Notes under the pieces: generated by a model | Database searches by the model: none | Seen by the model: the letters and a program-made list of their open reading frames with translations, nothing else | Told to the model about the DNA's origin: nothing | Assembly (NCBI GenBank): GCA_964016885.1 | Contig: OZ024761.1 | Coordinates: forward strand, 22,072,001 to 22,136,000 | Length of the DNA stretch: 64,000 nt | Reading direction: 5' to 3' | Origin: Eledone cirrhosa | Taxonomy: Eukaryota | Translations under genes and position numbers: made by a program | Part shown: one piece after another, positions 2,728 through 44,878 of the stretch | Position numbering within the stretch: the first letter of the stretch is position 1 | How the letters are laid out: every line of letters begins with the position of its first letter

Positions 2728-2782
2728 ACTGCTATATATATTTTGGTGACAGCCATCATTGGCTGTGACCTCTTCAGGCAGT
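2728..2782 (-). ncRNA. Type I hammerhead ribozyme, G12A-decayed
   Basis: ACUGC-CUGAAGA-GGUcACAGCCA(AUGA)UGGCUGUcACC-AAAA-UAUAUA-UA-GCAGU; GAAA reads AAAA. Confidence 0.75.
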
Positions 2783-3210
2783 CTGAATTGGTGTGGTAGA
2801 GACAGGTACACTTGTTGTTGAAGTGTTTTACTCCGTCAATACTCCGATATGTCCAGCTCCTGGTTGGGTTGTTATTTCTCTGAGGAACTGGAATCATATG
2901 AATTCGAACAAACGAATTTCGGAGTCGTAGGACTCTCTCTCCTCCCATTGGTCAGTTGAGAGAACATTCCTCAGTCAGAAGTCTATAGAAATGTTTCTGA
3001 GTCAAGACAATCTGTTGTGGTTGTTTTTTGTTAAGTACAGCTGACCTCCTCCCTTGTGTTGGTAGTGGTATTGGTGTTAAGGGGTCAGCTGGCAGGTCAG
3101 CTTTAGTTCGGCTGCTGCTATGTTCAGAAGAACATAGAAATATATATATACAGTATATAAAACGACAATAAAGGCTATACTGGAAGATATGCTGTAAAAT
3201 TTAATTCCGT

Positions 3211-3291
3211 GAAATTACAATATATATTTCAATGGTCCAGCTCCATCATCCAAATATGATGGAAGACAGGACAGTCTCATCAGGTAACTTC
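3211..3291 (-). ncRNA. Type I hammerhead ribozyme, intact core
   Basis: GAAGUUAC-CUGAUGA-long stem II (GUCC/GGAC, UCCAUCAU/AUGAUGGA)-GAAA-UAUAUA-UU-GUAAUUUC; 8-bp stem I. Confidence 0.8.
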
Positions 3292-3554
3292 GACAGAATT
3301 ACAAAAACATAGTTATATACATTATTATTACTATATATATATATATATATAGATGTGTGTGTGTGTATATATACCTGTTACTGGCAGTGTGTGTGTCTAT
3401 GTATCTGCTAGTGTCAGTATAAATGTATGTATGTACCAGCTAGTAACAGTATATGTGTGTGTTATGTTGGTATTCTATGTTTTACTGCTGTGTTGTTGTA
3501 TTTACCCCAGTTTTCTATGTTTATAAAAACTGACCTTAAGTTGTTGTGTTCTAG

Positions 3555-3804
3555 GACAAGCTTCTTCTTGAACCATATGGGAAGCCTCGTGATATTGCCT
3601 ATGTAGTCGTTTGTCCAGATAACGAATACATTGTGAAGAATGCAAGGTTTTTTTTCAAAGAATTAAGTACAATCTATGAGCTATGTCGGCTGGGCCGACA
3701 TTGTCCCATAACGAAGGTACTCCGTGATGGCATTCTCAAGGTAGGCCAATCTTCTGCCCAGAAATATGCTGATGAACCTATAGAAGACTGGTTTAATTAT
3801 ATTG
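3555..3804 (+). CDS. MED13: MED13 coding exon
   Basis: DKLLLEPYGKPRDIAYVVVCPDNEY...FFKELSTIYELCRLGRHCPI; ttctag| and |gtaagt. Confidence 0.95.
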
Positions 3805-3859
3805 GTAAGTGCTTTAAAGTTTTTTTTTTACAAAACCCTTTTTTTGTCCCTTGTTTTAA

Positions 3860-4053
3860 CCCTTTAGTATTTACATTACTCTATATTTACTTTTGTATTT
3901 TCACAGTAAACACTTTATCTTACAAAATATCGCACATAATATCGAATCAATGAGATTTTGATATTATTTATTTTGAGAACAATACTTTAACATCAGTATG
4001 ACTGGCCGGTGAGAGAAGTTTGGCCAGATACGGCTGGTTTAAATGCTAAAGGG
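3860..4053 (+). mobile_element. piggyBac-like MITE (194 bp)
   Basis: TTAA|CCCTTTAGTATTTA...TAAATGCTAAAGGG|TTAA; relatives at about 13640-13830, 17195-17411, 54350-54730 and 62572-62767. Confidence 0.85.
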
Positions 4054-4603
4054 TTAAAATAGGTGGTTTTTGTTTCCCCAAACTAGAGCTGGTTTTGAAT
4101 GGATTGTTATTAAAGGGGTTAATGATCATCAAGAAGATCCGAGACCACATTTGCTTACCGTGTGGGGTATATCTCATTCAATTGGAACTTATTGCAACTC
4201 CTGACAGAAAGAACAACATGAAATAAAGTATCTTGCTTCAGGACATAACGCATCACTCAATCTCGGGAATCGAACTCACAACCTCACAATAGTGAATCTA
4301 ATTCTCTAACCACTCAACCACACACCTTCATTATCCTTAACTATATTTAAATTAGAATTCTTCAACATAATTTTATGTAAAAACCATGTGAGGTTATTAA
4401 CTTAGTAATGAAATAATTAATAATTTTAGTAAATCTCTAAAAATTCATTAATTTAATTACATTAATTTTATTAATTACAGGAAATGAAATACTATTAATT
4501 GTTGACTTAGTTCCAATATTGATAACACTGGAAATGTATGAATGTCTCCACATCTTGTTCCTTATTTTATTAACAACATCATTTTCCTTTTCTTTCTATC
4601 CAG

Positions 4604-41404: not shown

Positions 41405-42170
41405 GTCTGATATCAAGAAATCCTCTTGTGAACGTGACCTGGGCATTACTGTCAGCAGTGATTTGCGTTGGACAAAGCATGTCTCTAAGATTGTCAAGAA
41501 GGCCGAGGGTGTCTTGGCATCACTCATCAAGACCTTTGTCAGCCGCTCTCCAGCCATCTATTTAAATAGCTATGGTACGACCACACTTGGATTTCGCATC
41601 ATCAGTCTGGAACCCCTATCTTGCTCAGAACATTGACCTCCTGGAAACTGTTAAGAGATGTGCAACCAAGCGCATACCCTCCATCAGACACCTACCATAC
41701 TCTGAACGCCTTGCTACCCTGGGCATGGATACATTGAAGCTCTGACATCTGGCAATGGAGTTGGTAAACACCCACAAAGTTATTAACCATCTCGCCAACA
41801 ACAACCCTGAGTACCTTTTTGATCTCCATGTGTCTAACATACATGGACATGCCTACAAAGTCAGAAAACAGCACAGCTCCCATGACTTTCGGAAACATTT
41901 TTTCACGCTCAGAGTTGCTGAAGCATGGAACAATCTGCCTGCATCAGTTGTTAGCTGCTGAGACACTGCATCCTTTAAGACACTCATGCTTCCTGAAATT
42001 CACCAAAACTACATCTGATGTACCCCTTCCATACACATACACACATGTGTTTATCATGACTCATGCTCTGTTCATTTTCCTGACGTTTGTACATTACCCT
42101 ATGTACTATACATACACTTTTGATGAGTTGTAGTGCAGCTGAGCACTGTACACAATATTTTCATTATATT
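41405..42170 (+). mobile_element. CR1-clade LINE 3' fragment (degenerate ORF2 C-terminus)
   Basis: ERDLGITVSSDLRW, RPHL..ASSVWNPY, YSERLATLG, FFTLRVAEAWNNLP. Confidence 0.88.
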
Positions 42171-42196
42171 ATATTATATATATATATATATATATA

Positions 42197-43020
42197 TAAA
42201 GTTATGTTGGTGCCGCGCCATCGAGGCCGAAACAAATGAGATCGTGTAGGTGTCACGACAAAAAAAAACACACAGTCCACGCTGTAATGTGGCCGTGTAG
42301 GCAACACGGTAAAAACCTCCCAGACCCACACTGTAAATGTGGTTGGTGTTAGGAAGGGCATCCAACTGTAGAAAACCTGCCAGACAGTCCTATGCGAGCA
42401 AGACAATCACTCTTGCCTCAAGTGGGACTACCCCCGTCCAAACCCATGCAAGCGTGGAACACGGACGTTAAACGTTGATGATGATGATGATGATATATAT
42501 ATATATATGTATGTATACATGTATGTATACATGTATGTATACATATATATGCCTGTATATATATATATATATATATATATATATATATATATATATATAT
42601 ATATATATATATATATGTATGTATACATGTATGTATACATATATATGCCTGTATATATATATATATATATATATATATATATATATATATATATATACAT
42701 ATATATATATACATATATCTATGTAAAGTTATGTTGGTGCCGCGCCATCCAGGCTGAAACAAATGAGATCGTGTAGGTGTCACGACAAAAAAACACACAG
42801 TCCACGCTGTAATGTGGCCGTGTAGGCAACACGGTAAAAACCTCCCAGACCCACACTGTAAATGTGGTTGGTGTTAGGAAGGGCATCCAACTGTAGAAAA
42901 CCTGCCAGACAGTCCTATGCGAGCAAGACAATCACTCTTGCCTCAAGTGGGACTACCCCCGTCCAAACCCATGCAAGCGTGGAGCACGGACGTTAAACGT
43001 TGATGATGATGATGATGATG
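42197..43020 (+). repeat. Local tandem duplication of a SINE-like element between microsatellites
   Basis: 42197-42492 nearly identical to 42725-43020. Confidence 0.85.
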
Positions 43021-44424
43021 ATATATATATACAGGCATATATATGTATACATACATGTATGTATATATATGTAGAGAGAATAAACATACCAAAATATATG
43101 TGTTTTTGTATTTGTATATATTGATTTGTTTTTATGAAAGTATTTACACATATACACTCATACTTGCACGCTCTCTCTCTCTCTCTATATATATATATAT
43201 AACAGTAGAAATAGAGAGAGAGAGAGAGAGAGAGAGAGGGGGGAGAGTGGTAGGTGAATCAAACTGGTTTTATAAACCGGATTGAGTAAGTCTCAATCAC
43301 ACTGATTGTAGGTCTGTAAGTATATATATGTACATTTTTTTCTCTCTCATTTTCTATTGAAACAGTAGCGCATGTATATATATATATATATATATATATA
43401 TATATATATATACACGCACATATATATATATATATATATAACAATATATAACAATATATATATATATATATATATATATATATATATATATATATATATA
43501 TTGTTATATATTGTTATATATATATATATAATATGTGTGTGTGTATATATATATATATATATATATATATATATATACACGCACATATATATATATATAT
43601 ATATAACAATATAGAACAATATATATATATATATATATATATATATATATATATATATATATATATATATATATTGTTATATATTGTTATATATATATAT
43701 ATAATATGTGTGTGTATATATATATATATATATATATATATATATATACGGTTACTTTTTTGCATGTTTCTTTCACCTGTGTCTTCCCATGATGGACCTG
43801 AACGCCTTTTTTTCTCCTGTTCCTTTTCCATTCCCCCTTTTTTCTTTCCTCTCTCCTCATCCTTTTCCACCTGGCTTTTTGATTAATAAAAGGCCCCGGG
43901 TGCACCCGAAATACACCGATGTCCTGTAATTCAGCCTCGAAACATTGCTTTGGGAAACATTTACACCTGACGATGGAAACTCCTTTGTTCCTTTCTCCTC
44001 CTGTTCCGTCCTAACCATCATCCTAAACTTTGTTTTTAATAACCACACAGCTCCTTTCGTTTCATAACTTTTTGTATATATATATATCATCATCATCATC
44101 ATTATCATCGTTTAACGTCCATTTTCCATGCTAGCATGGGTCTGGACGGGAATTGTCCCACTTGAGGCAAGATTGGTTGTCTTGCTCAGGACTGTCTGGC
44201 GGGTTTTCTACAGCTGGATGCCCTTCCTAACACCAACCACGTTTACAGTGTGTACTGGGAGGTTTTTACCGTGTTACCTACACAGCCACATTACAGCGTG
44301 GACTGTGTGTTTTTTGTCGTGACACCTACACATATATATATATATTGCAAAACAAATTGAAAAACAAATTATATATATAATATATACACATATATATATA
44401 TGTATATATATATATATATATATT

Positions 44425-44746
44425 TCGTTTCTGAATTTGTTTAGCAAGATTCTTTATCTGAAAACGTGTGTTGAAACCGATATTGTTATGCTTTGGGAGG
44501 GTCATGTTGCCAATAAGAAACACACGCACCAGTTGCTTTCACTTCAATTTATTATAAATTAAATTTATAAATTTAGGAATTTATAATTTCCGGTTGGTTA
44601 GTTGGTTCCACAACCAGACGATTGTTCATATATTGTCAAAGTTCTTTCGTCACACATTCTGTGACCTCTTCAGTGACTGGGGATTCTTTTCTTTGTTTTT
44701 GTGCCTCTTTTTTGTTCTGTCCTACGCCATCTTGTTTTTGTATGTC
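44425..44746 (-). mobile_element. Inverted Penelope pLTR-like fragment
   Basis: Diverged reverse complement of about 47180-47440. Confidence 0.8.
44635..44678 (-). ncRNA. Minimal hammerhead in inverted pLTR
   Basis: GUCA-CUGAAGA-G-GUCACA(GAAUG)UGUGAC-GAAA-GAAC-UU-UGAC. Confidence 0.78.
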
Positions 44747-44817
44747 ATATATATATATATATATATATACATATATATATATAGAACATTTTGTATTTTA
44801 TCTGATAAAACATATTG

Positions 44818-44878
44818 TATTTTATCTGATGATAGTGTACCAAAATTTTGGTACCCTTGAAATATATATAATAGAATA
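44818..44878 (+). ncRNA. Type I hammerhead, same family as 39317
   Basis: UAUUUUAU-CUGAUGA-uAGuGUACCAA(AAUU)UUGGUACcCUu-GAAA-UAUAUA-UA-AUAGAAUA; stem II covaries with the 39317 copy. Confidence 0.82.

Follow-up and report, generated by a model that had tools for sequence, protein, structure and literature searches.

The window, the 64,000-nucleotide stretch analyzed here, belongs to the genome of Eledone cirrhosa (GenBank assembly GCA_964016885.1, contig OZ024761.1, positions 22,072,001 to 22,136,000 of the forward strand) and contains five type I hammerhead ribozyme (HHR) motifs, each located at the 3' end of a high-copy interspersed repeat family. These motifs represent a real, selected and lineage-specific form of the HHRs of Penelope-like elements (PLEs) of the Hydra clade, recognizable by a mismatch at the fourth position of a long stem II (10.4 on the 5' strand, 11.4 on the 3' strand). 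Families are designated below by the window position of their motif, and the features are as follows.

2728..2782, minus strand: type I HHR motif; core start 2777, C10.4 at 2767 opposite C at 2748, stem III six-mer at 2735-2740, N17 at 2733, G12 mutated to A
2676..3132, minus strand: 5'-truncated 3' end of an element assigned to the Hydra clade of PLEs, ending at the (TA)n tract 2648-2678
3211..3291, minus strand: type I HHR motif; core start 3283, U10.4 at 3273 (CpG decay of the family C) opposite C at 3234
3141..3319, minus strand: truncated 3' end of an older repeat family, 83-90% identical to its copies
8982..9053, plus strand: type I HHR motif; core start 8987, C10.4 at 8997 opposite C at 9033
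8806..9105, plus strand: inverted piece of an element tail (8806-8887) and, after it, the truncated end of that element (about 8900-9105)
39317..39381, plus strand: type I HHR motif; core start 39325, C10.4 at 39335 opposite C at 39358, stem III UAUGUA at 39366-39371, predicted cut after 39373
39060..39425, plus strand: complex insertion between (TA)n tracts, from a young family with copies 98-100% identical; inverted 3' end (about 39060-39128), sense 3' end with tail (39129-39240) and truncated ribozyme-bearing copy (39236-39425)
39161..39182, plus strand: tail hairpin (ACUC, stem, UU bulge, GAGU), conserved across Hydra-type elements
44818..44878, plus strand: type I HHR motif; core start 44826, U10.4 at 44836 (CpG decay of the family C) opposite C at 44855, first stem II pair U.U
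44805..45017, plus strand: truncated element end with a tail of about 90 nt, followed by (TA)n at 45017-45041; flanks homologous to the 39317 family

A first-pass annotation had placed five HHRs at these sites, and all five CUGANGA cores were confirmed there. The type I core (CUGANGA, GAAA and UH joined by three helices) is intact in four of the five copies, and the shared GAAA-UAU(A/G)UA-U-H signature is present in all of them, with G12A in the 2728 copy; other copies of that family carry an intact GAAA. The covariation of the 39317 and 44818 stems is as it had been described, but these two motifs share flanks, so that the five are not independent of one another. A scan of the window tolerating one core change returned the same five motifs and one echo of a 24-bp duplication at 44781-44830. 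Searching Rfam with the motifs matched no hammerhead family, and none appeared among the best 150 of the 242 rows of a wider scan.

The abundance of such motifs was estimated from a random sample of the same genome (2,996 Mb, 1,796 contigs) made of 100 evenly spaced 10-kb stretches (1,000,000 bases). An unbiased scan for type I HHRs detected 76 motifs, vs. 1 in an order-3 Markov control, and their occurrence is therefore not due to chance. Counted from the listing, 37 of the 76 belong to the class with a U-xxxx-A six-mer as stem III. This class, missed by Rfam, thus reaches 37 intact-core motifs per sampled Mb, on the order of 100,000 genome-wide if the sample is representative.

Searches for family copies, in which the best 40 of 488-2,108 first-look candidates were scored each time, revealed a common anatomy. 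Copies are 5'-truncated, often arranged as inverted pairs, and stop either about 45-60 nt past the predicted cut or past an optional tail of about 85-110 nt. They usually adjoin (TA)n on their 3' side, less clearly so in the older ones, 3211 and 8982. Truncated tandem or inverted insertions with an optional tail are typical of PLEs (Craig et al., 2021, PMC8557442; this and the other papers are cited for the sections on which we drew). Two further insertions in the window have a related appearance. A decayed sixth Hydra-like end (57430-57640, minus strand) retains CUGAUGA near 57633, a long hairpin and a tail hairpin at 57527, with no intact GAAA; a short insertion between (TA)n tracts (33449-33760, minus strand) has a tail hairpin at 33545 and no recognizable ribozyme core.

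The protein-coding part of the elements was reached by walking upstream from the ribozymes. A GIY-YIG endonuclease with a CxCX5C linker, C-terminal CxxC and CxH motifs and no CCHH, as read from translations, precedes the 39317 ribozyme at 8 distinct sites of the genome, and the same type of endonuclease lies 1.1-2.0 kb upstream of the 2728 ribozyme in 7 distinct places. A reverse transcriptase (RT) with DKT and YRDD motifs was also found upstream, reading KSDKTNN in loci L336 and L339 (DKT instead of DKG). At the N-terminal RWK site, the 39317-family copy, which is truncated there, reads RWH by eye, and its relatives L180 and L340 read RWR. A Pfam search of four Hydra-type protein pieces returned no significant domain. 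CxCX5C, CxxC, CxH and DKT are the motifs that define the Hydra clade, published as HHR-bearing and (TA)n-targeting, with one family of Octopus bimaculoides listed (PMC8557442). Because the upstream RT and endonuclease carry these motifs, the 39317 and 2728 families can be assigned on sequence grounds to Hydra-clade PLEs. The 3211, 8982 and 44818 families likely belong to the same clade; the tail hairpin described below occurs in 2/19, 2/14 and 16/40 of their copies, respectively.

A Neptune-type source was considered and dropped. A Pfam GIY-YIG search gave Neptune-type open reading frames (ORFs), three of which have a ribozyme of the class 1.5-3.4 kb downstream, but comparison of the 3' regions showed these ribozymes to be unlinked, nested short insertions, and no endonuclease with CX2-5CxxC and CCHH was found linked to a ribozyme. 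The window itself contains a canonical Neptune-like Penelope element (45599-46933, plus strand) coding for an RT with a C-terminal GIY-YIG, with one internal stop and no link to the ribozyme class. The assignment of the family GGACGUAC to an ORF in L183/L340 is doubtful, as it relies on one locus, an inverted pair and a protein lying outside the sub-clade.

To which extent the stem II mismatch is conserved was assessed in 1.98 Mb of sequence, with a scan demanding the first 4 pairs of stem I and 2 of the 3 pairs of stem III, and nothing at position 4 of stem II. The 234 unique six-mer motifs recovered form 38 clusters, of which 21 were kept as families. The 17 left out comprise 2 sub-clusters of kept families, 6 decayed copies of the 3211 family, 1 duplication echo, 6 clusters with a C-start stem III and 2 U-start clusters lacking the mismatch (probable noise in one case, a short stem II in the other). 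C occupies position 10.4 in 21/21 families, where it faces C (18), U (2) or A (1) and is never paired. The mismatch reported in the window is thus real (C.C, U.C, C.C, C.C and U.C, in order of position), although its invariant letter is the 5' C and not the 3' C. At the copy level, C.Y occupies position 4 in 199/219 copies, including C.C in 12/19 copies of the 3211 family and 33/40 of the 44818 family. The two U's found at 10.4 in the window result from CpG decay of the family C, since T10.4 precedes G in 11 of the 12 copies that carry it; C10.4 lies in such a mutable CpG in 68/202 copies and yet persists. A C-start six-mer ribozyme (CAUGUG, L249:8670-8796) also has a long stem II with C.U at position 4, and is possibly an intermediate or parallel form.

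The pairs flanking the mismatch show the opposite of a fixed sequence. Stem II pairs 2-3 and 5-8 are kept in 18-20 of the 21 families, with many double changes, and pair 1 is weak (12/21). The family alignment, built from real representative copies, has 85.2% of its cells paired, vs. 65.5% after shuffling, and a covariation score of 0.69, vs. 0.30; none of 500 shuffles scored as high, slid controls were far lower, and double changes occur at 17 of 20 pairs, with covariation in helices I to III. On a neighbor-joining tree, C10.4 underwent 0 parsimony changes, compared to 4-8 (mean 5.9) at the other 5' columns of stem II. The covariation and the constancy of C10.4 support the earlier proposal of a selected fold. 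The first stem II pair is a canonical G10.1-C11.1 in only 6/21 families and U.U in 7, as in 26/40 copies of the 44818 family; since U.U also occurs in 19 of 58 distinct Hydra-type motifs from outside this genome, a non-canonical first pair is a trait of the clade, not decay. Besides, pair 3 is C.A in 15/19 copies of the 3211 family.

How far the mismatch extends was examined among 78 metagenome loci related to these proteins, 62 of which carry a hammerhead. C.Y is absent from position 4 in all 58 distinct outside motifs, one of which carries C.U at position 6, and stem III is closed by C-G in 58/58. Likewise, no C.Y at position 4 was seen by eye in the published Hydra ribozyme table (PMC8557442). 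The mismatch is lacking from outside Hydra ribozymes with a long stem II, and from other Hydra-type families of the same genome, which have a short stem II. A protein tree of 49 rows (16 own loci, 26 of the 78 outside loci and 7 database proteins, two short own rows being left out), midpoint-rooted and comprising neither published reference proteins nor a non-Hydra outgroup, groups the mismatch families with linked proteins together (support 58) within a larger group of support 98. Because position 4 lacks the mismatch in 58/58 outside motifs, we read it as a derived trait inherited within one sub-lineage rather than a convergent one, apparently maintained by selection as the identity of the endonucleases fell to about 39-49%. 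The motif is accordingly not the independent structural class that had been proposed, but the property of a single retroelement sub-lineage. In contigs of two other organisms (depth 3-8, word share 0.23), the mismatch positions are unchanged; these were not counted as evidence.

Eight families have UAUGUA as stem III, six have UAUAUA, and seven have other six-mers (UGCGCA, UGAUCA, UGUACA, UACGCA, UGUGCA, UGCGUA and UACAUA). Minimum free energy folding of monomers yields no hammerhead stem III, as expected of a stem of 2 bp. The innermost pair of the palindrome, which cannot form in a monomer hairpin, is kept in 20/21 families, which supports selection of stem III as a self-complementary dimer interface. 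The dimeric cleavage suggested earlier fits these palindromes, yet it is not new, as it has been published for PLE hammerheads (PMC4209133; review PMC6765202). The accompanying suggestion of a stem III resembling the microsatellite target, with pairing to (UA)n RNA or its cleavage in trans, fared less well and appears highly improbable. In its favor, stem III is UAUAUA or UAUGUA in 14/21 families, and the predicted energy of these six-mers with (UA)8 (-4.1) is comparable to that of self-pairing (-3.2 and -2.2, respectively). However, the 7 families with other six-mers include UGCGCA, whose self-dimer is predicted at -10.5 kcal/mol vs. +1.7 with (UA)8, and which nevertheless ends in (TA)n in 9/9 copies. 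Moreover, an in-register (UA)n substrate places a U at 1.1 that faces U or C, leaving 0 stem I pairs in 21/21 families, and the published Hydra elements target (TA)n, as already known, with a C-G-closed stem III that is not (UA)n (PMC8557442). Given these other six-mers and the (TA)n insertions of the UGCGCA family, stem III is best read as a palindrome that is not (UA)n-specific; weak competition by (UA)n RNA is possible, on energy predictions, for the AU-rich majority.

The five motifs are thus best explained, with more confidence than doubt, as hammerhead folds about 50-60 nt from the 3' end of truncated PLEs (two traced to the Hydra clade, three likely of it) in which the invariant C10.4 is likely under purifying selection, either because it is recognized by a partner (the RT-endonuclease that the element encodes being the likeliest) or because it sets the geometry of the helix. 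With a monomer stem III of 2 bp probably too weak, two ribozymes would associate through an 8-nt palindrome and cleave in dimeric form, as published for other PLE ribozymes. Tandem transcripts would be processed in this way, and the protein of the element may be required, as it is for Poseidon of Anolis carolinensis. In the lengthened stem II, the mismatch would separate a weak base of 3 bp from a strong distal helix. Insertion into (TA)n would be directed by the endonuclease, through its linker as suggested before (PMC8557442), and not by stem III. Generic weakening of the helix is a less likely role for the mismatch than contact with a protein or a fixed C.Y geometry, because both letter and position are fixed and stem I offers no invariant partner. 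PLE hammerheads cleave poorly in vitro (PMC4209133, PMC11167929), and protein contact is our leading guess because cleavage by the Poseidon ribozyme of Anolis depends on its own protein (PMC11167929).

Alternatively, the mismatch could be an RNA-only tertiary or folding element, which docks on stem I like the canonical loop 2 or kinks the long stem II for protein-free dimer cleavage. U1.7, which we take to be a possible tertiary partner, is present in 15/21 families, and the mismatch sits where the canonical 4-bp helix II ends (PMC4209133). On the other hand, every position of stem I changed 3-6 times, which argues somewhat against a tertiary pair, and the outside Hydra ribozymes that also have a long stem II do without the mismatch; we consider this explanation rather unlikely. 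Less probable still is a functionless, frozen ancestral accident of a recent radiation. The families with linked proteins do form one sub-clade (support 58) and copies with a closed pair occur (3/41), but the mean pairwise identity over stem columns is just 52%, and linked endonucleases are only about 39-49% identical. Moreover, 0 changes at C10.4 against 4-8 elsewhere corresponds to a rough Poisson P of about 0.003, and the C persists as a mutable CpG.

Several observations weigh against selection on C10.4 in a Hydra-clade element. Upstream walks reached no protein for the 3211, 8982 and 44818 families. In the random sample, position 4 is closed by G-C in 3/41 copies, at L187:3230 and at L172:4668-4842, the latter being one inverted insertion with G in both arms; since two of the closed copies form this inverted pair, an RNA carrying the closed pair was possibly copied. 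A T-start six-mer motif with a short stem II and no mismatch (cluster 21) was left out of the 21 families, which are themselves related, 9 of them being single copies, and do not amount to 21 independent trials. The monophyly of the mismatch families is supported at just 58%. Finally, ribozyme cleavage is dispensable for insertion of the Anolis element in vitro (PMC11167929).

A second conserved structure lies downstream of the ribozyme. The tail begins with a UY-bulged hairpin (RCUC-Y...R-UY-GAGY-RC) located 35-65 nt past the cut site, and copies without tail stop about 6-10 nt 5' of its site. It follows 34 of 49 distinct outside ribozymes, vs. 5/1,140 shuffles, with a bulge-adjacent pair that is U-A (19) or C-G (15); the base pair of the hairpin is G-C outside and A-U in the own genome. 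Tails being optional, the hairpin was found in 12/21 own families, and in 65/207 copies of the class vs. 1/65 copies of the eleven other ribozyme groups listed. R-UY-GAG paired to CUC-Y presumably has a local geometry like that of the arginine-binding bulge of HIV-2 TAR, and the linker between thumb and endonuclease of the element protein contains an arginine-rich stretch. The tail hairpin is a candidate RT-binding or start-site signal. We tentatively propose, as a speculative extension, that the 3' module of Hydra elements is a two-part RNA read by protein, with the clade-wide UY hairpin as RT binding and start signal and, in the present lineage, the C.C or C.U mismatch as a second handle making cleavage dependent on the element's protein. 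If so, tens of natural families would provide ready specificity variants to probe the purpose of PLE hammerheads.

Compared to published Hydra-clade PLEs (Craig et al., 2021, PMC8557442), the elements share the C-terminal GIY-YIG with its CxCX5C linker, CxxC and CxH, the RT DKT, insertion at (TA)n, a ribozyme near the 3' end and a weak first stem II pair. Published Hydra ribozymes have a paired position 4 and a C-G-closed stem III of 7-8 nt; those described here have a U-A-closed six-mer and a long stem II with C10.4.Y11.4. The 3' untranslated region is 1.1-1.6 kb, one truncated copy already measuring about 3.7 kb whereas published Hydra elements are generally <3 kb, and the tail of about 85-110 nt exceeds the 30-40 published for PLEs (PMC8557442). 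Minimal or short-stem-III type I hammerheads of metazoan PLEs (Cervera and de la Pena, 2014, PMC4209133) have the same topology, palindromic stem III with proposed dimer cleavage, long helix II and mostly solitary truncated copies. Unlike these, the present motifs have no bulged nucleotide between 9 and 10.1, and G10.1-C11.1 is restricted to the 6/21 families mentioned above; an internal C.Y mismatch at position 4 was not seen by eye in the 56-motif alignment of that paper. Poseidon of Anolis (Frangieh et al., 2024, PMC11167929) is similar in its optional tail between two element ends and in the location of its ribozyme upstream of RT start sites, but belongs to a different PLE clade, has a ribozyme overlapping the start codon, and the sections of the paper cited here describe no mismatch or bulged tail hairpin. 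Non-LTR (long terminal repeat) retrozymes (Cervera and de la Pena, 2020, PMC7229834) are likewise very high-copy animal type I hammerheads with a short palindromic helix III; they are 300-bp non-coding tandem repeats, unlike the present dispersed or inverted ends of protein-coding elements. A retrozyme identity was rejected, as copies reach upstream into the RT-endonuclease ORF. Neither the stem II mismatch nor the tail hairpin was described in the literature searched, a search beyond which Lunse et al. (2017) and Repbase entries lie.

The mismatch bears on the role of hammerheads in PLEs. That a nucleotide outside the core varies as little as the core itself, among families with endonucleases only about 40-50% identical, suggests selection of these ribozymes beyond their minimal fold, and C10.4 would offer a single-base handle on protein assistance.

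Other elements were observed along the way. A long perfect inverted repeat in the window (23494-23611), which shares sequence with a piece at about 39590-39640, resembles a miniature inverted-repeat transposable element in appearance. The random sample (L161-L260) also contains further hammerhead classes, with CUAG and GUAC four-mer stems III and with 7-nt CC..GG stems, as well as hammerheads with the eight-mer stem III CUAAUUAG in tandem repeats of about 500 bp that are retrozyme-like. In L151, a hammerhead of the CUAG class forms a tandem array of about 480 bp.

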